A DNA stretch of 64,000 nucleotides from Candidatus Omnitrophota bacterium (GTDB lineage Bacteria; Omnitrophota; Omnitrophia; Omnitrophales; Aquincolibacteriaceae). This document shows, piece after piece, positions 31,930 through 42,328 of the stretch (position 1 is its first letter; every line of letters starts with the position of its first letter). The DNA is taken from positions 2,767 to 66,766 of the forward strand of contig PLLJ01000045.1 in assembly GCA_003140935.1 (NCBI GenBank), read 5' to 3'. The notes under the pieces are model-generated. The model searched no databases, had not been told where the DNA came from, and saw only the letters and a list, made by a program, of their open reading frames with translations. The translations under genes were made by a program, and so were the position numbers.

Positions 31930-32250
31930 CTATTGTTCTTCCCTCGACCCATTGATCTCATCGCCCCGCGAATATCGTGCGGTGTCTCCGGCCTTATAAT
32001 ATTTTGTGACGGAAATGACGAATTCTAAAAAGCCCCGCGCTTTGAGCTCATCCTTGATCTTCTCCAAAAGCTCCTGTCCCGGATCTTTCTGGCTCCATAT
32101 AAAAAAAGAGAGCGTATCTTTCCGGACGGTCAAATGGTCCACATTCTCATGGGCCCTTAAGATCTGTTCGAGAGGGTGCACATCCTCCAGACGCAGAAAA
32201 CGCGACGGGAATTTGATCTCAATGATCGTTAAAGTGTTTAAAAGTTTCAT
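31930..32250 (-). CDS. Small hypothetical protein (106 aa) tightly bracketed by 34-bp direct repeats
   Basis: MKLLNTLTIIEIKFPSRFLRLEDVHPL...; direct repeats at 31886..31919 and 32252..32286. Confidence 0.45.
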   Translation of the reverse strand: MKLLNTLTIIEIKFPSRFLRLEDVHPLEQILRAHENVDHLTVRKDTLSFFIWSQKDPGQELLEKIKDELKARGFLEFVISVTKYYKAGDTARYSRGDEINGSREEQ

Positions 32251-32358
32251 GCGTACTATTCTACGAAGGAACGGCGAAGAATAAAGCCTTTTGCGGATTA
32301 AAACAACAAACGGAGAAATCAAACAATGGAGTCATCCCTTCCCTCTTTTGGATGGCTG

Positions 32359-32970
32359 TCATCTTTTTTTCAGAGTAGCTTTGTCTTTATAGCTTGTACA
32401 TCGCACATAAAAATCAAATTGAATTAAAAAAAGAAGTATTGCGAACATAATTGTTAGAAATAAATTTTTCGTTAAACTTAATAATCCTATCGCTAATAAA
32501 GTCCCATTTAAAAAAGCCATTAAAAATACGAGGATCGGGAAATGATGCAAAAAACCTTCAAAATGTTTTGGCTCCTCATCGGTTATCGGCAACTTCAAGT
32601 ATTTTGTCAGATCGTCTTCCAGACTATTATCTGTGAAATACTTGCGAGTAAGGTTTGCGCTTTTTGCATAAAAAATCATCCGCATCCTAAGATTCATTAT
32701 GATCGCAAGGAAAATAACTCCTATAACAACTAAAAAAAGAACTATATAGACAAATGGCACTGGCAGATTATACAAGTCCCAAGTGATGGAGTTTATTTCT
32801 CTTGTTAATGCTAAGAATAAAGAAAGCGGAATCGCAATAACACCAAAATAATATTTAAATAATTGATAAAGAATTGTATATAAATGCTCGTAAAGCTCAT
32901 GCAAAAGCTTGTGCTCCTGCATCATAAATTCAAATTCTTGCTGAGCAGATAGTTGAGGATGTTTTTCCAT
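32359..32970 (-). CDS. 4-TM membrane protein, last gene of the AT-rich island cassette
   Basis: AT-rich codon usage; four hydrophobic helices; no recognisable family. Confidence 0.6.
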   Translation of the reverse strand: MEKHPQLSAQQEFEFMMQEHKLLHELYEHLYTILYQLFKYYFGVIAIPLSLFLALTREINSITWDLYNLPVPFVYIVLFLVVIGVIFLAIIMNLRMRMIFYAKSANLTRKYFTDNSLEDDLTKYLKLPITDEEPKHFEGFLHHFPILVFLMAFLNGTLLAIGLLSLTKNLFLTIMFAILLFLIQFDFYVRCTSYKDKATLKKR

Positions 32971-32990
32971 TGCTATCTTTAATGGGGTCG

Positions 32991-34070
32991 TTATTTCCTT
33001 CCCAATCTTTCTAATTCCCGGTTGTATGATTCAAAGCCATGTCTTATGACTATGTTTTGCTCTCGTACTTTTCTTCGAAAAAGTTTAACTTGCCAATCCA
33101 TCCAATTCTGATGAATAAAATAATCCGCAGAAGTCTGCGCGACTCTTGGGTTATAGTTATCGAACGTTTGATTTAAAGGCCGATAACGGCAATCAGCGGT
33201 TTGAACTCCCCATTTTTTACATTCTTTAATTTTTTGCAACATTTCATAAAAATCATGTTCGAAGTTAGATATCATGAACACGTACATCTCTTTTGCTCTG
33301 TATCCGGCTTCGATCAGCATCTCGATTTGTTTTTTTATCATTTGGCGCTGGGAATATCCATGATCCCAAGCGATCCTCGGGTTAAGAAAATGTGCCTGCT
33401 TCAACAATTTCGCCAATTCTGGCGTCAAAAGCCTCCCGTCAATTCCGCACTGACTTTCAGAATAGACCGCTCGCCCATTGCACTTCGCATTCTTCAATTC
33501 ATCCAAAATGTCTTTTATATATGGATTAGCTAAAAGATTATTATCGTAAAAAATTACCCTATTGCTACAAATCTCATCTTTGATACTTTTTTTGGGAATA
33601 AATTCGGGCTCGATTTTCCAAGTTCCGCAGAATTTACATTTTCGCACACATCCTCTTGAAGAATGAACGATCTGATAATCGACATCAACTAAACTGTAAT
33701 CTGGCGCAGATGCTTCCGCCTTTGGATCCACGCCAACAAAAACTTTATCGCATTCAGATTGTTTACAGTGGTCTGGCATGAGTGATGCATAAATGCCACC
33801 GACAGTTATATGGGCCCTGGGATAATTCTTTTTGTAGAATTTCACACTATCCCACACGTATTTGGACCAATAGGTAAATAGAGAGGTAATCTTAATTTCA
33901 TCCGGACAAAACTCTCCAACCAGCTTGTCCCCTCGCACAAGTCGGACTTTATCACCATTTGCTTTGTGGTAACTGGCTAGCTTGAGTAAGCCAACAGGCA
34001 AAAAATCTCGGTGATTTTTGCTTTTTGCTGGAATCGGAAAACCTGGTTCCACTAATAATATTTTAGACAT
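32991..34070 (-). CDS. Radical SAM enzyme with N-terminal B12-binding-like (Rossmann) domain
   Basis: KILLVEPGFP...PVGLLKLASYH...HITVGGIYASLMPD (B12-binding-like); SSRGCVRKCKFCGTW (CxxxCxxC). 8-nt overlap with the upstream HD gene. Confidence 0.75.
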   Translation of the reverse strand: MSKILLVEPGFPIPAKSKNHRDFLPVGLLKLASYHKANGDKVRLVRGDKLVGEFCPDEIKITSLFTYWSKYVWDSVKFYKKNYPRAHITVGGIYASLMPDHCKQSECDKVFVGVDPKAEASAPDYSLVDVDYQIVHSSRGCVRKCKFCGTWKIEPEFIPKKSIKDEICSNRVIFYDNNLLANPYIKDILDELKNAKCNGRAVYSESQCGIDGRLLTPELAKLLKQAHFLNPRIAWDHGYSQRQMIKKQIEMLIEAGYRAKEMYVFMISNFEHDFYEMLQKIKECKKWGVQTADCRYRPLNQTFDNYNPRVAQTSADYFIHQNWMDWQVKLFRRKVREQNIVIRHGFESYNRELERLGRK

Positions 34071-35583
34071 TTTTATTTAACAAGGTTTCTGGTAATTTCA
34101 ATTTAATGCCATTAAATTTTATATTATTCATAACATCTTTGTACTCGGGGAGTTTTCGAGCTAATTGCTCAGGATTAGCCCATCGGACTTTAACTTCAGC
34201 GTAATTATCTTCAAAACGGAAACCATCAAAAATGGCAAATTCCGCCGTTTCTTCGAAAGAACCGTTTCTTTTCCAATCATGTATGCTATCTAAAAAAATT
34301 AATAATACGGCGAAAGGGAAACGAGAAATATTAATCGGGAAGACTTCATGCTTTCTGAGTTCTTTCCAGATTCTGCTGTCATGTAGCGCAATAGAAGTAA
34401 CCGCTGGTATAACATGGGTAACAATTAACGGCCTATTGGGACGGCTGGTCACGACTTTTGATTCGCGTAAAACTCTCACAAGAAATTGAAAACATCCTGT
34501 TACTCCATGCGATCTATGTTTTATCAAATGTTCTCGTAGTATGTCCTTGATACTAGAATCCTCATCTTCTGACATTTCGGGCGTCCAATTATTAAGGATA
34601 CGTTCGGAACAACAATGTCGAATGAAGGATTGTAATTGTATCGCAGCCTGCAAATAATCACTTTTATCAGCGATCTTTTCCAAACCAATTAGTTCTATAT
34701 CCTCATTGTACCCGTACATTTCGCCAATTAAGTTGCCTGCTTTTTGCGAAGGGTAACCAATATCATGGAATATAGAAGTAATTAACCAGATGTATTCGAT
34801 GGAAAAATCTTTTTCCCGAGGAAAAACATTTTTATAATATTTTTGAAATTCCGCATAGTATTTATCGATTATTACGCATCCCATTAACATAACTTGAAAA
34901 GAATGCAAATAATGCTCACGCGTGCCCTTCAATAAGGGCTCATAATATTTCAGCCTCAAGTAAGGTTCCGAAGAATAATGAAATCTTTTATTATCAAAGA
35001 TTTTCTTTATCGTCAAATCAACTAATTCGTATTCCTCCTCTGAGATATTTTTTGTTTTTCTTAATCGTGAATATTTCGATACAAAATCCTTTAGGATTTG
35101 GCGGTATGAAATATTGTCCAAATCGCCAACGTACGATAAAAGCTTATTTGGAACATGTCCATGCTCAGAAGCCGCCTTCTTTTTTATTAGTTGTTTATAT
35201 TTTTTTCCACTAATTGCTTTGGCTTTAATATCAAGAAGTACGGAAAGCGAAGAATTGCTTAACTGAATTAGCCCAAATCCATTATTGAAACATTCAGAAA
35301 ATATCTGATCATATTCATATTCCGGCGGAATATAATAATAAAATTCAAAATTTTTAATTTGTTTTTTTGCTTTGATGATTTCTTTAGCGCCATTCGCTGG
35401 AAAAGCATTGCTTGTATTTATATCAATTGAAATTAATTTGGACTTATAGCGGTAAAGAAGATCTGGGCTCCACGCAATACCTCTTAAAATCCGATCTCCA
35501 GCCTTTTGGGAAAGTCTTCGCCAGTTGTATTTTTTCACTAAAATTTTATTGAGTTTATCTAGAAAAATTTCTTTTTTTGACAT
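34063..35583 (-). CDS. HD-domain phosphohydrolase (506 aa) with dNTP-triphosphohydrolase-like motifs and an uncharacterised ~220-aa N-terminal region
   Basis: TREHYLHSFQV (compare dGTPase RLTHSLEV), SIFHDIGYP (HD), later HRSHGV and LDSIHDW. Confidence 0.7.
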   Translation of the reverse strand: MSKKEIFLDKLNKILVKKYNWRRLSQKAGDRILRGIAWSPDLLYRYKSKLISIDINTSNAFPANGAKEIIKAKKQIKNFEFYYYIPPEYEYDQIFSECFNNGFGLIQLSNSSLSVLLDIKAKAISGKKYKQLIKKKAASEHGHVPNKLLSYVGDLDNISYRQILKDFVSKYSRLRKTKNISEEEYELVDLTIKKIFDNKRFHYSSEPYLRLKYYEPLLKGTREHYLHSFQVMLMGCVIIDKYYAEFQKYYKNVFPREKDFSIEYIWLITSIFHDIGYPSQKAGNLIGEMYGYNEDIELIGLEKIADKSDYLQAAIQLQSFIRHCCSERILNNWTPEMSEDEDSSIKDILREHLIKHRSHGVTGCFQFLVRVLRESKVVTSRPNRPLIVTHVIPAVTSIALHDSRIWKELRKHEVFPINISRFPFAVLLIFLDSIHDWKRNGSFEETAEFAIFDGFRFEDNYAEVKVRWANPEQLARKLPEYKDVMNNIKFNGIKLKLPETLLNKNV

Positions 35584-35593
35584 ATATTTGGAA

Positions 35594-36592
35594 TTATTTG
35601 TTATTTATCATTTGGTCAATGGTGTCTCGAAGTTTTTTTAAAGAAACCAAGATTCCTTCCTTTCTTTTTTTATCAGTTTCCTTCTTTAAATCAAACTCAG
35701 ATAGCTGTGAATTTAATTTATTAATATTTTTAATTAATGAACGGCTTGTTGTTTTGCTGGTCAAGGTGGGTATTTGTACTTTTTTAGTTAAGTCGTTTTT
35801 CAAGTCTTCGATTGTATACTCGATGTTTTCAATAAATCTTTTTGCTGAAGCAGCAAAAATTTCGATTTTGTCCAACTTCTTGCAAGTCATGATGGCATCG
35901 GGTATCCAAAAGAATGCGCGAGTTGTCCCAAGAAGACCTTTTTCTGCTTTCGCTATAAGCTTCCCTCTAATTTCTTCCCTCGAGTGATCCTTAAAAGTTT
36001 GGGGTATGTTTTTTTCTAACTGTTCAACAAAATTTTGTTCTATCTGCACAAGGTAACTGTCATCCAGCTTATTCTCCATAACTTTTTCTTGCGTTTCTTT
36101 ATTAAACCTCAAAAGCCGCAATCTATCTTCGACCTTTTTTCCGTCCATTTTGGTTATCTTTGCTATTTCGCCAATTAGGTCTTGATCGGTTATCGATTTG
36201 TTTTTTCTTTTTATCAAATCAACATAGAATTTTAGCGCTTGGGCTTGCGCCATCGGCTCCCATTGTTCTCTCAGCATGTGAATTTGAAACATTCGTTTTA
36301 AGCCTTCCCCTTGGGCTTTGGCTTTTTTAATGGCCAACACATGGATGGGCACGCCTTCTCGTTTAACTTTTTGAGCAGCTTTAAGCCGTCTTTCGCCATC
36401 GAGCAAAATATATTTTTTGCCTTTTTTGCTATCGTTTTTAAAAACGATCAAAGGCACCATGACTCCAAATTGCCGAATGGATTCCTCTAGTGCTATGAAA
36501 TCCTTATCCTCATAATCCTGGCCTCTGGGATTATCTGGATTGAAAGCTATATCATTAGGAGAAACATACCTGATCTGCTCGTTTTTATTCAT
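35594..36592 (-). CDS. ParB/Sulfiredoxin-like N-terminal domain protein with Lys-rich helical C-terminal half
   Basis: VSPNDIAFNPDNPR...LEESIRQFGVMVPLIV...YILLDGERRLKAAQ (ParB box motifs); GGAGG RBS 6 nt upstream. Confidence 0.75.
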   Translation of the reverse strand: MNKNEQIRYVSPNDIAFNPDNPRGQDYEDKDFIALEESIRQFGVMVPLIVFKNDSKKGKKYILLDGERRLKAAQKVKREGVPIHVLAIKKAKAQGEGLKRMFQIHMLREQWEPMAQAQALKFYVDLIKRKNKSITDQDLIGEIAKITKMDGKKVEDRLRLLRFNKETQEKVMENKLDDSYLVQIEQNFVEQLEKNIPQTFKDHSREEIRGKLIAKAEKGLLGTTRAFFWIPDAIMTCKKLDKIEIFAASAKRFIENIEYTIEDLKNDLTKKVQIPTLTSKTTSRSLIKNINKLNSQLSEFDLKKETDKKRKEGILVSLKKLRDTIDQMINNK

Positions 36593-36761
36593 TCTATACC
36601 TCCATTTATTCCATAAATCATTTAAGATTTTTTATCTTTGTAGACGGAATCGATCCTACTTTCTTTCGTAAGTCAACGGAACACCGTCTGGGGAAAGACG
36701 TTAACTCCCCAATCTTATAGACGCACTCTTCGTTACAGGCAAGGGGAAAAAAGAAACCGCC

Positions 36762-37989: not shown

Positions 37990-38027
37990 ACAAAAAAAGC
38001 GGTTCCCCTTTAAAAGGAAACCGCCGC
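37990..38027 (-). terminator. Rho-independent terminator candidate downstream of the SNase-fusion gene
   Basis: Minus strand reads ggcggtttcctttt-aaa-ggggaaccgc followed by a run of 7 T. Confidence 0.45.
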
Positions 38028-38207: not shown

Positions 38208-39560
38208 TCACCTTTGCATACGAACAGCGTGCCCTTTTTCCAGGAGTTCCTGGTTCACGTAAGTCCCGCCGGCCCAAATGTCGACCAGGTACCTGTCGTA
38301 TTTGTCGGACTTGACGGTCTTGATGAGGATTTGCGCGCTGATTTTTCCATCCGCCATTTTCAACATCTTCTCCATGGCTTCTTTCGCTTCTTTTCCTTCC
38401 TTGCTCACGAGCTCGGGGGCGTCGAGACCGCGCAGGCGCAGGGTCTGCACGCTGCGCACGCCGAAGCCCAGATCGACCACCGCTTCGATCGTGTCGCCGT
38501 CGAGAATGCGGAACACCCAGGCGCGGTAAGTAAAAAGGTCGGCGGAGGTCCGTTTCGAGAGTTTGATCAGATCCGAGGGCGCGGAACCCGCTCCCGGGAA
38601 CGCGGGCATCACTTCGATGATCGCCCCTTCCTTGAAACGGAGGTCCCGGGACGTCCGGTAATAATTGGAGAACCCGAGGTCGATCACCGCCTTGCCGGTC
38701 TCGGGGCCCGCGGCGGCTTTGACGATCTTATAAGTCCCGGGCTTCCCCGGCTTGGCCGTGAGCGGGGTTTCTTTCACCGGCGCCGGCGCCTCATTTTTCG
38801 CGGCCTTGCGCTTTTTCACTTCTTCACGTACCTGGTCGCGGGTCCAGTTTTCTTTTTCAGCCATGGCCGCGACCTCGTCTTGCTCCTTGATATCATTCAG
38901 CGAAAGAAGCTCCTCATAATGGCTCCAGCTCAATTTTCCCGCGGGCGGGGAAATCGGGTAATCGCGGGCGAACTGAAGCATGGCGTACAGCTGGGTCTCG
39001 CTGATGGGCAAGTCTCCGGACAATCTTAAGATCACCTGCTTGCCGTAATCCGCGCGCTCCTTGTGCTGGAGCACGTGCTCGTCGATCAGTTTGCCGATCT
39101 CCCACGCCTCGCGGACTTTTTCCTGTTGGGCGGCCTGCTCCACACGGGCCTCGCTGGCCGCGTGGGCCTTGCGAATGGCGGCGACGAGCTGCTCGTAAGT
39201 TCCAACCTGGGTCGCGAGCACTGTAGACGATGGTCCCAAATCGTCACCGGGCCGTGCCTGTTCACGGCGCTCTTCAGCCGTCCCTGTGGGACTGGGAACA
39301 GGCGAGGTCTGGACCTGCGGCGCGGGCACTGTAGACGATTGTCCCAGATCGTCACTGTGCCGTGCCTGTTCACTGGGAACAGGTGCGGGGACCGGCGGGT
39401 TCATCGAAGGGACCTGCCCTGAGCTTGCCGAAGGGGCCTGCGAAGACGAGGACTTCAAGTCCCCGCGAGCGTGCTGAGGAACCGGGTCCTCAGCCTGCAA
39501 GGACGGGGATATCCAGAGGAGCGTGAGGAAAATACCGAGGGTGATCGTCGTCGTCTTCAT
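38208..39560 (-). CDS. Secreted multidomain protein: signal peptide, low-complexity duplicated segment, YhcG/DUF1016-N-like helical domain, and C-terminal staphylococcal-nuclease (SNase)-like domain
   Basis: MKTTTITLGIFLTLLWISPSLQA signal. Two copies of ARxxDDLGxSSTVxAxQV. SNase-like GDTIEAVVDLGFGV...LRGLDAPE...DKYDRYLVDIWAGG. Confidence 0.65.
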   Translation of the reverse strand: MKTTTITLGIFLTLLWISPSLQAEDPVPQHARGDLKSSSSQAPSASSGQVPSMNPPVPAPVPSEQARHSDDLGQSSTVPAPQVQTSPVPSPTGTAEERREQARPGDDLGPSSTVLATQVGTYEQLVAAIRKAHAASEARVEQAAQQEKVREAWEIGKLIDEHVLQHKERADYGKQVILRLSGDLPISETQLYAMLQFARDYPISPPAGKLSWSHYEELLSLNDIKEQDEVAAMAEKENWTRDQVREEVKKRKAAKNEAPAPVKETPLTAKPGKPGTYKIVKAAAGPETGKAVIDLGFSNYYRTSRDLRFKEGAIIEVMPAFPGAGSAPSDLIKLSKRTSADLFTYRAWVFRILDGDTIEAVVDLGFGVRSVQTLRLRGLDAPELVSKEGKEAKEAMEKMLKMADGKISAQILIKTVKSDKYDRYLVDIWAGGTYVNQELLEKGHAVRMQR

Positions 39561-39680
39561 TCCAAAGGTCCTTTCTTCTATGTAAGGCGTACGGTGTACG
39601 GAGTACGGCGTCCCGCCTGTCGTTCCTGTTCAAAAAAGGCGGGGCAGTGCGTCCCAACCTTCCCATCCATTTTAAAGGCC

Positions 39681-39830
39681 GGTTGAGACTGTCCTAATAC
39701 TTATCAATTTCCGCGCAACGGAAATTGGGGCTGCCCAAGTCAGCCATTCTGGAAATGAAACAAAAGACTTGGACTGCACTAAACTTCATTTAAGCTTTAT
39801 GGGTTGTTCAGTGCGTCCGTTTAAGGAGTT
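39681..39830 (+). repeat. R1 structured intergenic repeat, second full copy
   Basis: About 90% identity to 14582..14735 across all three hairpins; its 3' end supplies the stop codon region of the adjacent gene. Confidence 0.8.
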
Positions 39831-40159
39831 TCCTGCGTCTCTTCCGGGTTCGTTTCTTCTTTTACCGGGGTCCCGAGGGGTTGGGCGGCCTCCAGATCGT
39901 CGATCCGGGATTCCAATTCCGCGTCCTGCCGGACCATGTACTTCATTTTGGAATCGTTCGTGTCGAGCCTGTTTTCCAATTGGCTTATTTTTGCCGCGAG
40001 GGCTTCCATTTTCGAGCCGCTCGCCTTGGCCTTGTTTTCCAATGCGTTCACCCTGGCCTCCAAAATGTCCGTACGGAAAGTATCCTCGACCGCGAGGACC
40101 CGGGTACCCGGAAGAAGCCCAAAGATCAGACAGAACGCGATTAGCAGTTTCTTCTTCAT
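39821..40159 (-). CDS. Secreted coiled-coil protein
   Basis: Signal MKKKLLIAFCLIFGLLPGTRVLA; heptad-rich body. Confidence 0.55.
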   Translation of the reverse strand: MKKKLLIAFCLIFGLLPGTRVLAVEDTFRTDILEARVNALENKAKASGSKMEALAAKISQLENRLDTNDSKMKYMVRQDAELESRIDDLEAAQPLGTPVKEETNPEETQETP

Positions 40160-40334: not shown

Positions 40335-40739
40335 CTAAATACTTTTCTGCGTTTCTTGCGGGTCCGTTCTTTTTTTAGATTTGTCCCCGGAGTTTTTCGT
40401 CTCGTTTTGGGCGGTCTCCAGATCGCTGACCCGGGATTCTAATTGGATCTCGTTCATCCGGGCCGCCAGGTTTCCCATTTTGGAGGTATTCGCGCCGACC
40501 CTGCCTTCCAATTGGTTCATTCTTGAATTTGAGATGTTCGCGCCGATCCTGCCTTCCAATTGGCTCATTCTTGACTCTAAGGTTCGCATCTTCGCGTCGC
40601 TCGCTTTAGCCTTCTCTTCCAATTCCTGCACTCTGTTGTTTACAGAGTACGTGCGGTTCGCATCATCGAACGCAAAGACCCGGGCACTTGGAAGAAGTAA
40701 AAAGACCAGACCGGACACGAGAAGTATTTTCTTGTTCAT
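40335..40739 (-). CDS. Secreted coiled-coil protein, tandem paralogue of 39821..40159
   Basis: Signal MNKKILLVSGLVFLLLPSARVFA; shares the EEKAKASxxKM...SQLEGR pattern and a similar upstream region (ttcagNtctcctttttt). Confidence 0.55.
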   Translation of the reverse strand: MNKKILLVSGLVFLLLPSARVFAFDDANRTYSVNNRVQELEEKAKASDAKMRTLESRMSQLEGRIGANISNSRMNQLEGRVGANTSKMGNLAARMNEIQLESRVSDLETAQNETKNSGDKSKKRTDPQETQKSI

Positions 40740-40830: not shown

Positions 40831-41433
40831 CTAGTTCCCGGGAGGCGGCGAAACGGCCTGATAATAAACACCGTTCGCTCCGAAGTAGGGCCGGTACCAC
40901 GAAGTCCCGCATTGATAGGCCATGACATTATTCACATTGACGGCCGAACATACGCCCGGAAGCACCGAGACTTGAGTGCCTACCGGCGCCGCCGCGGGGA
41001 CGACCTGCTGGACCACGGTCGTTGCGGGTTGTTCCACCACGACCGTTGCCGGCTGCTGCTGCGCGGTCGCGGCCCCCACCATCGTCCCCATCATCATGCC
41101 GGCAAGGGCATCGTCGGCGGCTCCATATCCCCATCCGGGGCCCCACCCGCCGTTCCACCCGTCGACGGTGTAATTGTTGGTGGTGTTGCCGTTGTTATCA
41201 TTGTTGTTATTCCTTCGATGATTGTCTCCATGGTTCCACTGCCCGCCGTGGTATTCGCCGCTTCCGTGTTCCCCCGGCCTCTCACCGCGGCCTCCGCCGC
41301 CAAGATTTCCGCCGCGTCCGCCGCCGCTCCAACCCCCAACCCCGCGTCCGCCGCCCCGCGCATACGTATCGCCGGAGCCGAGCGAAAAGATCATCGCGAT
41401 CAACACCATCATTATAAGTTTATTGTTTTTCAT
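40831..41433 (-). CDS. Secreted glycine-rich protein (GGWSGGGRGGN..., Asn-rich stretch, two C-terminal Cys)
   Basis: ORF track to 41766. Likely start MKNNKLIMMVLIAMIFSLGSG at 41433, overlapping the upstream gene's end. Confidence 0.5.
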   Translation of the reverse strand: MKNNKLIMMVLIAMIFSLGSGDTYARGGGRGVGGWSGGGRGGNLGGGGRGERPGEHGSGEYHGGQWNHGDNHRRNNNNDNNGNTTNNYTVDGWNGGWGPGWGYGAADDALAGMMMGTMVGAATAQQQPATVVVEQPATTVVQQVVPAAAPVGTQVSVLPGVCSAVNVNNVMAYQCGTSWYRPYFGANGVYYQAVSPPPGN

Positions 41434-42328
41434 GACCGGGCTCCTCGCGTTGTTGGTCCGCAGTGCCGGAAGGAATTCCCCCGCCCTGCTGCATCGGATT
41501 GCGGAATTCGACCTTCGCCGCTTGGGTCGCGTTCTGGAACACGAAGGTCTCCGGAGGAACAGGTTCATCGATCTTCCAACCGCCGAATTCCACCAGGTAG
41601 CTCGGTTCTCCCGTGTTCTCGAGATAGGTCGCGCATACCAGCCGCGGCAGGTGGTCCTCGGTCCCAATCCAGATCTGCCACTCCACTCCCTGATTCGAAA
41701 ATGCCAGATGGTCGGTCTTGACGTTTCCCGCGCCCGACAAAGGCTGGAAAGTCGACTGGCCGACAAAAACGGCGCTGACCAGTCCTTCGGTCAGAATAGC
41801 GTACGGCTGGTCCCTGAGGATATCGGCATACGGAAAGGACTTCCCTTCTTCCTGGTAGGCTTTTTCGATCATGCTGTCCACCGTGCCGGGCGCCGCCTTC
41901 TCGGCATAAAGATTCTTCTCCGGCGCGTACGCCGTGATCGTCTTGCCGTCGAAATAAAAATCGTACGGGAAAAAATCGCCCCGGGTTTCCACAAAGAGTT
42001 TCCCGGAGCCTTCCTTCACGACCCGCGAGGTCCCGTAAAGGCTGACCCACGCCCCGCTCGGCGACTTGATCGGCTTCATACTTCGGGCTTCAAAACGGAA
42101 CGACTTTGCCTGAGAAAGTTTATCGCTCATGAGCTTAAGCGTATCGAGAGCGCGCGGGTCACGGGACGCCGCGACCGGTTGTGAGGACGCGGGTGCCGCG
42201 ACCGGTTGTGAGGACGCGGGTTGCGGAGCCGTTTTTGCGGGAGCCGCTTCTTCCGCCCATCCGGTACCGGCCGCTGCCACGAACACCGCCAGGCTGAACA
42301 CTCCTACCCAACATTTCTTTGAGAACAT
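41420..42328 (-). CDS. Periplasmic LolA-like/DUF2092-type protein
   Basis: Signal MFSKKCWVGVFSLAVFVAAAGTGWA; AGGAGGG RBS; profile consistent with LolA-fold DUF2092. Confidence 0.5.
   Translation of the reverse strand: MFSKKCWVGVFSLAVFVAAAGTGWAEEAAPAKTAPQPASSQPVAAPASSQPVAASRDPRALDTLKLMSDKLSQAKSFRFEARSMKPIKSPSGAWVSLYGTSRVVKEGSGKLFVETRGDFFPYDFYFDGKTITAYAPEKNLYAEKAAPGTVDSMIEKAYQEEGKSFPYADILRDQPYAILTEGLVSAVFVGQSTFQPLSGAGNVKTDHLAFSNQGVEWQIWIGTEDHLPRLVCATYLENTGEPSYLVEFGGWKIDEPVPPETFVFQNATQAAKVEFRNPMQQGGGIPSGTADQQREEPGHEKQ

Follow-up and report, generated by a model that had tools for sequence, protein, structure and literature searches.

The sequence studied here, called the window in the following, comprises 64,000 nucleotides of contig PLLJ01000045.1 (positions 2,767 to 66,766 of the forward strand) from a Candidatus Omnitrophota bacterium (assembly GCA_003140935.1). 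On its minus strand a complete open reading frame (ORF) was identified, which begins with ATG, ends with TGA and encodes a putative exported nuclease of 450 amino acids. In the deduced protein, a signal peptide-like segment and a disordered linker precede a helical DUF1016_N domain, which is followed by a small beta domain and, at the C-terminus, by a domain of the staphylococcal nuclease (SNase) type (Table 1). Downstream of the stop codon, approximately 170 nucleotides of non-coding DNA are followed by an intrinsic terminator, and the gap on the 5′ side of the gene amounts to approximately 260 nucleotides. Because of this gap and its own terminator, the nuclease gene is probably monocistronic.

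The C-terminal part of the protein was assigned to the SNase family by several searches. Pfam SNase matched residues 373-447 (E 3.2e-8, 34.4 bits, cutoff 21) and also all 79 members of the family alignment, and a phmmer search of PDB sequences aligned residues 346-445 to the thermonuclease of Staphylococcus aureus with approximately 30% identity. The top profile match was PHROG 452, annotated as 'endonuclease' (phrog_452, E 5e-26, residues 335-449). In an AlphaFold2 (AF2) model calculated from the 79-sequence alignment, residues 270-450 gave predicted local distance difference test (pLDDT) values above 90, and a Foldseek search with this model yielded staphylococcal nuclease, with a template modelling (TM) score of 0.67 to the target and a root-mean-square deviation of 2.6 Å. 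The active site was mapped on the S. aureus nuclease by the motifs DGDT, TxRLxxxDxPE and DKYxR. We take D356 and D380 to correspond to the Ca2+ ligands Asp21 and Asp40 (nuclease A numbering), R375, E383 and R423 to the catalytic residues Arg35, Glu43 and Arg87, and K420 and Y421 to the substrate contacts Lys84 and Tyr85. D354, D356, T357, R375, D380, D419, K420, Y421 and R423 were invariant in the 79 homologs, and E383 was present in at least 90% of them. Across both sub-clades, the same active-site positions were kept in 76 genomic copies of full length (32-100% identity), with rare substitutions (D380N, K420Q/Y421H). The position of Thr41 is occupied by Ala; in the S. aureus nuclease this residue provides a backbone carbonyl as Ca2+ ligand. 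Since the conservation of the active site is complete, the SNase core is predicted to act as a Ca2+-dependent DNA/RNA hydrolase, like the enzymes of the SNase superfamily, which yield 3'-phosphate products.

The helical domain was recognized by Pfam DUF1016_N (residues 129-250, E 2.2e-17, 63.9 bits, cutoff 32.8). It was also matched by the PDC-S02 models of PADLOC with E-values down to 6e-23, which covered only positions 12-151 of the 351 profile positions. At the level of sequence profiles, this domain is firmly established as a homolog of the YhcG-type N-domain. A PD-(D/E)xK nuclease domain (YhcG_C) was detected by Pfam neither in the query at E<=1 nor in any of the 79 members. Thus, the preliminary description of the locus, which had been made from the sequence alone and proposed a central domain reminiscent of DUF1016_N and a swap of the PD-(D/E)xK module for SNase, proved correct in these points, and the two objections that it named, a central domain without a DUF1016_N match and an SNase-like region devoid of catalytic residues (a Tudor-SN-like binding module only), do not apply. 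It contained neither the beta domain nor the shortness of the SNase domain, which ends near SNase residue 114 and lacks helix α-3, nor the large multi-copy family described below.

Several signals, each of them weak, hinted at the nature of the second half of the helical domain. HTH_ParB was matched by 62 of the 79 family members at E<=0.1 (best E 4.9e-5). The NCBIfam model of the LmbU-family regulator matched residues 198-270 (E 7e-7), although its score stayed far short of the cutoff, and a phage anti-repressor PHROG showed a weak similarity to the helical domain. With a separate model of residues 118-345 (pLDDT 71), Foldseek placed the DNA-binding domains of ParB, Noc and Spo0J on top of its list (6sdk, 6y93, 7bnk, 1vz0), at E-values of 0.2-1 and probabilities of <=0.93. 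Residues 118-345 did not match any PDB sequence, and a CTP-binding ParB_N domain was not found in the protein. For the YhcG N-domain of approximately 200 amino acids, Kosinski et al. found no structural match (PMC1189080). Because the signals from HTH_ParB, LmbU, the anti-repressor PHROG and Foldseek were concordant, we infer with good reason that this part of the domain is probably a ParB-type helix-turn-helix (HTH) that would bind DNA.

Between the helical domain and the SNase core resides the beta domain, for which no match was obtained among PDB sequences and, in any of the 79 members, in Pfam. Nevertheless, it is well conserved: G272, Y277, G285, D294, L295, G296, F297, Y300 and F309 of this region were invariant or nearly so in the 79-homolog alignment. 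Only in the full-length AF2 model, i.e. with the SNase part present, did the domain reach pLDDT values above 90, for which reason it may pack against the SNase core. The pattern TY...AV[IV]DLGF[SG]...LR[FL][KR] was common to the beta domain and the first SNase strands (beta1-beta3). An hhalign comparison of the two sub-alignments gave a score of 26.6 (P 2e-4), compared to 11.5 +/- 2.4 (maximum 18.6) for 200 column shuffles, 9.5 for a helical-domain control and 21.8 for a reversed profile. As the reversed-profile control was also high, the data are only suggestive of the beta domain being a degenerate internal duplicate of the N-terminal SNase strands.

To assign the signal peptide, we used a heuristic of our own that looks for a Lys/Arg-rich segment, followed by a hydrophobic segment and an A-x-A site. 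By this analysis the N-terminus has the layout of a Sec type I signal peptide, with the charged n-region MK, an h-region (TTTITLGIFLTLLWISPS) within the range of 7-17 residues, a helix-breaking Pro, a small residue at -1, and the c-region LQA preceding the predicted cleavage in front of E. The AF2 model contains a helix at residues 4-16, and the whole hydrophobic stretch comprises approximately 17 residues. A comparable segment was present in 103 of 121 database homologs, with a median length of 23 amino acids and Ala at -1 in 97 of them, a number to be read with the preference of the heuristic for this residue. In nearly all members, a Pro or Gly that breaks the helix was retained ahead of an A-x-A-like site. 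A lipobox (L-x-x-C) was not found, as the signal peptide of the query lacks Cys and the N-termini of the homologs either lack it or contain it at inconsistent places. The linker contains a direct repeat of 61 nucleotides (39205-39265 and 39313-39373), the copies of which are 89% identical, spaced by 108 nucleotides and in frame. Its motifs EQAR[HR]SDDLGQSS, GTAE[EK]R and GTAYD[KE][NS] occurred in varying combinations among paralogs. The possibility that the linker is a shared sorting tag was rejected, since a database search with the linker gave no match and the motifs were confined to genes of the family (regular expressions over approximately 760 kb of sampled sequence). The signal peptide with export, the duplicated low-complexity segment and a terminator candidate downstream of the gene (37990..38027) had all been part of the preliminary description; the first was supported by its conservation across the clade as judged heuristically, and the other two were found again as the 61-nucleotide repeat and the hairpin with its T-run.

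A database entry with 100% identity (P0001, JGI) starts at Met53 and comprises 398 amino acids, so that the signal peptide is left out. Met53 corresponds to position 39404 (locus L084, 3001-4197). It is preceded by a weak AGG-rich motif, while the first ATG has the better Shine-Dalgarno sequence. Moreover, the segment between the signal peptide and Met53 (AEDPxPQHARxDLKSxSSQ) was conserved in the close homologs P0002, P0003 and P0005, and because this conservation exists at the protein level, the region upstream of Met53 appears to be coding. On account of the Shine-Dalgarno sequence, the conserved residues 1-52 and the signal peptide-like segments of the homologs, the 450-amino acid start was favored. 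The public gene call thus probably misses the true start by 52 codons and hides the export signal. Other family entries, e.g., P0025, P0044 and P0054, also look as if they had been cut N-terminally by gene callers.

The architecture is not confined to the window. In an exhaustive profile search with HMMER, 942 clusters of 50% identity were represented among the matches at E<=1e-30, and the whole helical-beta-SNase profile was covered by each of the 150 best. By a word-indexed search, more than 548 proteins were found at 90% clustering, nearly all with both Pfam domains. Their sources list them either as 'DUF1016 N-terminal domain-containing protein [Candidatus Omnitrophota bacterium]' or, by the automatic naming of JGI, as 'endonuclease YncB (thermonuclease family)'. 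In GTDB species representatives 146 loci were identified, nearly all of them titled Candidatus Omnitrophota, besides a few labelled 'uncultured Planctomycetales' and one from Elusimicrobiota. Several copies occurred per metagenome-assembled genome, up to six in JAZDJU01, and more than one copy was present in 14 of 49 assemblies among 80 retained loci, copy numbers that bin contamination could inflate. In the literature, no paper was found that describes the DUF1016_N-SNase architecture or links nucleases to Omnitrophota. The family is thus large, automatically annotated, experimentally untouched and restricted to one phylum. The architecture had been called uncommon, which holds in relation to characterized proteins but not in view of these metagenomic data.

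Not all members of the family appear to be exported. A signal peptide-like segment was present in 49 of the 76 full-length genomic copies. In a neighbor-joining tree, 47 of these 49 fell into one clade, which contained only one further member without the segment (47/48). The remaining 27 copies are 32-45% identical to the query and begin directly at the helical domain, and some genomes hold copies of both kinds. Because about one third of the family lacks the segment, export as predicted here characterizes a single clade and is not tied to the DUF1016_N-SNase architecture as such. Likely, a cytoplasmic DUF1016_N-beta-SNase protein acquired the signal peptide and the modular linker in one lineage, which then expanded; the direction from the cytoplasm to the exterior depends on midpoint rooting of the tree.

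On the basis of these data we consider it fairly probable that the gene encodes a Sec-exported, Ca2+-dependent SNase-type nuclease held on DNA by its HTH domain. Translation would begin at the ATG at position 39560, and after export by the Sec pathway signal peptidase I would cleave off the 23-residue signal peptide behind LQA. The mature protein would then consist of a flexible linker of approximately 95 residues, the helical DUF1016_N domain, the beta domain and a compact SNase core. While the ParB-type HTH of the helical domain would hold the nucleic acid, the beta domain possibly packs on the core, in which Ca2+ (D356, D380) together with R375, E383 and R423 would hydrolyse phosphodiester bonds of DNA or RNA. 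The chemistry of SNase requires Ca2+ far above cytoplasmic levels. For this reason the pre-protein should be largely inactive before export and should not need an immunity protein, which would fit the absence of a conserved partner gene (see below). In a diderm cell, Sec export would lead to the periplasm. The most likely role of the protein is the degradation of nucleic acids outside the cytoplasm, either in the periplasm or in the medium, to scavenge them or to digest the DNA of a prey or host. A further candidate role is that of a periplasmic barrier to incoming DNA. A contribution to the degradation of extracellular DNA is plausible. Omnitrophota have been described as putatively predatory or host-dependent nanobacteria (PMC10066038).

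A number of observations speak against this interpretation. The public gene call starts at Met53 and lacks the signal peptide, and the cleavage-site scoring of our heuristic favors Ala at -1. For the query protein alone, HTH_ParB gave 13.7 bits and thus remained below its cutoff of 22.6. The SNase match covers only positions 1-76 of the 107 positions of the Pfam profile, and the equivalents of residues 110-149 of the S. aureus nuclease, including helix α-3, Tyr113 and Tyr115, are absent. In the PDB alignment, the last chain residue matched is 103 of 143, approximately wild-type residue 109, after which the query continues for five residues up to the stop codon. Engineered truncations of the S. 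aureus nuclease in the region 110-149 are destabilized, and to be active the short core would require the beta domain or a stability of its own. A frameshift or truncation artefact was rejected, since all members of the family end at the same SNase position and behind the stop codon lie non-coding DNA and the terminator. Furthermore, short natural SNase proteins exist, e.g., a phage protein of 114 amino acids (TM score 0.72). With regard to the role, more than 75% of the Omnitrophota species representatives encode nucleotide biosynthesis (PMC10066038), so that nucleotide scavenging would not be obligatory.

Table 1. Features of the nuclease gene, its product and the neighboring genes (positions refer to the window)
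Feature	Position	Strand	Remarks
Intrinsic terminator	37998..38025	-	12-pair stem, 4-nucleotide loop, TTTTTTT; separates the nuclease gene from the next secreted-protein gene
ORF of the nuclease	38208..39560	-	450 amino acids + TGA
Shine-Dalgarno-like sequence AAAGGA	39569..39574	-	8 nucleotides 5′ of the ATG at 39560; read from the sequence
Predicted Sec-type signal peptide, residues 1-23 (MKTTTITLGIFLTLLWISPSLQA)	39492..39560	-	heuristic n/h/c analysis; predicted cleavage before EDP
Disordered Pro/Ser/Thr/Gln-rich linker, residues 24-121	39198..39491	-	pLDDT <50; duplicated module EQAR[HP][SG]DDLG[QP]SSTV (two copies)
DUF1016_N domain, residues 122-254, seven helices	38799..39197	-	presumed nucleic-acid-binding module
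ParB-HTH-like C-terminal part of this domain, residues ~208-252	38805-38939	-	HTH_ParB, Foldseek
Lys/Ala/Pro-rich connector, residues 255-272	38745..38798	-	length varies across the family alignment; no secondary structure in the model
Small conserved beta domain, residues 273-343	38532..38744	-	five-stranded; no Pfam family
SNase (thermonuclease) catalytic domain, residues 344-450	38211..38531	-	C-terminally short; active-site residues conserved
Tandem pair of small paralogous proteins (112 and 134 amino acids)	39821-40159, 40335-40739	-	signal peptide and heptad-like repeats each
Secreted Gly/Asn-rich protein, then DUF2092 predicted periplasmic protein	40831-41430, 41420-42328	-	former: weak DUF6515 match
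ParB_N / weak GmrSD_N-like gene	35594-36592		low-GC island
506-amino acid protein without Pfam match	34063-35583		low-GC island
Radical-SAM-like gene	32991-34070		low-GC island
203-amino acid protein of unknown type	32359-32970		low-GC island

Attempts were also made to identify genes associated with the family. In the window, the nuclease gene lies downstream of argD, argG, argH and lysA. At seven other loci argH was likewise found together with a family copy, and on the P0011 contig argF-argG-argH-lysA directly precede the nuclease gene. Owing to this synteny, the window copy, located beside the arg/lysA operon, is regarded as a vertically inherited, chromosomal positional ortholog and not as part of a mobile element. 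Between lysA and the nuclease gene resides a cluster of genes for small exported proteins, namely the DUF2092 protein, the Gly-rich protein, whose true start is probably the internal MKNNKLIMM, and two coiled-coil paralogs. The latter pair lies directly 5′ of the nuclease gene and shows repeats of the type ...LE.KAKAS..KM..L....SQLE.R... with weak matches to coiled-coil Pfam families (DUF7310). By all-vs-all clustering of the flanking ORFs of 81 loci, neither a conserved partner gene or operon nor a conserved adjacent candidate for an immunity gene was found; the best co-occurring neighbor was a generic sigma-54 response regulator at 13 loci. A conserved partner was also rejected by inspection of seven members with or without signal peptide, the neighborhoods of which were unrelated apart from the arg/lysA synteny. 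The lack of a conserved neighbor speaks against the existence of an immunity partner and of a dedicated operon. A second family copy was not detected in the window by tblastn. Weak echoes at 52.9-54.4 kb were discarded as noise, as they lie inside an unrelated gene for an envelope-type protein of 827 amino acids.

Some surroundings of other family members were conspicuous. Members without signal peptide adjoin unrelated genes for polysaccharide biosynthesis, Fic/AbiE proteins or an acyl-CoA ligase/hydrolase. P0118, the sole member of the signal peptide clade without this segment (L004, 7013-8056 and 11365-12875), directly precedes a gene with a Fic domain, and an AbiEi/AbiEii pair and a TfoX_N gene are located close by. 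This setting resembles a defense locus or mobile element, unlike that of the window copy. In the genome of P0035 (L001, 7410-8974; also L002 and L003) a gene with a CLIPPER domain and a stand-alone SNase gene of 174 codons follow the family copy within approximately 1.2 kb, forming a local cluster of two SNase-type nucleases. At L018 (8930-9223) a 97-amino acid ORF, located approximately 3 kb 3′ of a full-length copy, matches only residues 374-448 of the query (49% identity) and may be the remnant of a paralog.

Downstream of the nuclease gene, the region 32000-36600 has a GC content of 0.34-0.38 compared to approximately 0.55 in the flanks. This island was probably acquired horizontally. A link between the nuclease gene and the island was rejected, because the island gave no PADLOC match, has no tRNA gene nearby and does not lie beside other copies of the family.

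Besides soluble export, four other explanations of the protein were weighed. Its hydrophobic segment might not be cleaved but function as a signal anchor and the linker as a stalk, which would make the protein a membrane-tethered periplasmic nuclease for DNA uptake or a barrier to phage or foreign DNA. Models for such an enzyme are EndA of pneumococci, NucA of Bacillus subtilis and Nuc2 of S. aureus. The length of the hydrophobic stretch would suit an anchor, and a disordered linker of 95 residues directly after such a segment is typical of tethered enzymes. Also in favor of this reading are the helical domain, which is common to YhcG-type proteins that PADLOC lists among its defense candidates (PDC-S02), and the Tad and type IV pilus machinery that Omnitrophota encode (PMC10066038). 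However, the helix breaker and the A-x-A-like site conserved in nearly all members argue for cleavage, and neither a competence gene (comEC, comEA) nor a pilus gene was consistently adjacent to the family copies. We regard tethering as unlikely.

If translation began at Met53, the product would be cytoplasmic like the relatives without signal peptide, and might be a latent DNA-binding nuclease in defense or DNA metabolism. The JGI gene call and the AGG-rich motif in front of Met53 would be in line with this, as would the 27 family copies that genuinely lack a signal peptide and the PDC-S02 match of the N-domain. Against it stand the conservation of the first 52 residues in close homologs, the signal peptide in 47 of 48 clade members and the better Shine-Dalgarno sequence at the first ATG. 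As to defense, the window copy is not surrounded by a defense island, and the low-GC island downstream of it had no PADLOC match. A cytoplasmic location of the window protein was judged to be very improbable.

No more convincing was the idea that the protein is a toxin of the polymorphic nuclease-toxin type, secreted against other bacteria or prey and delivered into target cells. It could draw on the predicted export, the shuffled modular motifs of the linker and the several paralogs per genome, and Omnitrophota have been proposed to be predators or parasites (PMC10066038). Yet none of the 81 loci revealed a conserved adjacent immunity gene, Pfam scans disclosed no delivery domain (Rhs, LXG, PAAR, CdiA, colicin translocation), and the nuclease domain is strongly conserved instead of polymorphic. 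Least probable of all, a non-catalytic nucleic-acid binder that uses the SNase fold as in Tudor-SN might explain the truncated domain (profile positions 1-76 of 107, without Y113, Y115 and helix α-3), but the invariant or nearly invariant catalytic and Ca2+ positions in the 79 homologs and 76 genomic copies would be unexpected for a degenerate module.

Returning to the exported nuclease, its origin may be outlined, albeit tentatively and with considerable doubt. A YhcG-like cytoplasmic nuclease, possibly with a function in defense, could have been re-targeted to the outside by the gain of a signal peptide in a single lineage of Omnitrophota. With up to six paralogs per genome and recombining linkers, it would have become an extracellular or periplasmic arsenal for the digestion of DNA or a barrier to phage DNA, in which the beta domain, as a degenerate SNase half-barrel, would replace the missing C-terminal helix. 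Omnitrophota are uncultured, mostly ultra-small and suspected to be predators or parasites, a lifestyle for which few molecular tools have been described. A conserved multi-copy nuclease, predicted to be exported and equipped with a DNA-binding domain of its own, is a testable candidate for the handling of DNA from prey or foreign sources. With its two sister clades, one bearing and the other lacking the signal peptide, the family probably exemplifies how a DNA-binding nuclease of the cytoplasm was re-targeted outside the cell. Furthermore, the family offers a possible functional handle on the uncharacterized DUF1016_N domain, and the ParB-HTH-like nature suggested for this domain would also bear on Escherichia coli YhcG and on PDC-S02 of PADLOC. 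The component domains and their chemistry are well known, so that the protein adds to established biology without overturning it.

Among known systems, E. coli YhcG (COG4804; DUF1016_N and YhcG_C) resembles the window protein in the pairing of a homologous N-domain with a C-terminal nuclease. The nuclease module of the window protein is an SNase domain and not of the PD-(D/E)xK type (motif E-D-E[ILV]K), and its clade is predicted to be exported. YhcG proteins are not known to carry signal peptides. A further common feature is the lack of conserved gene neighbors (for YhcG: PMC1189080). As the defining PD-(D/E)xK domain is absent, the window protein is not a member of the YhcG family and shares only the N-domain with it. 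ParB, Noc and Spo0J (HTH_ParB, PF17762) were the closest, though weak, structural matches of the helical domain. Unlike them, the window protein has no N-terminal CTPase and no dimerization domain, and it would be uncommon for a ParB-type HTH to function outside the cytoplasm. Since ParB_N is missing, the protein is not a ParB. It also shows no hallmark of a polymorphic toxin.

The SNase part has several counterparts. With the S. aureus nuclease A (Nuc; PF00565, COG1525) it shares the oligonucleotide/oligosaccharide-binding (OB) fold core, the Ca2+ ligands and the catalytic Arg/Glu/Arg. Nuc is also synthesized with a signal peptide and a pro-segment, to which the N-terminus and linker of the window protein may be compared. 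In contrast to Nuc, the window protein possesses two additional domains on the N-terminal side (DUF1016_N and beta), lacks the C-terminal 35-40 residues with helix α-3, Y113 and Y115, and originates from a phylum of the Gram-negative type, for which reason its final location may be the periplasm. The thermonuclease-like endonucleases of phages (PHROG 452) resemble the SNase part as well, and a short SNase without the last helix exists among phage proteins. The ParB nuclease of plasmid RP4 is likewise a thermonuclease-like endonuclease. Unlike these single-domain enzymes of phages and plasmids, the Omnitrophota family is chromosomal and syntenic and contains extra domains. Finally, S. aureus Nuc2 and YncB/YokF of B. 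subtilis are membrane-anchored or lipoprotein homologs of SNase. In these proteins, as predicted for the window protein, an N-terminal targeting segment sets the SNase domain outside the cytoplasmic membrane; the Omnitrophota family differs from them by the lack of a lipobox, by its putative DNA-binding domain and its beta domain, and by a paralog expansion specific to the phylum.

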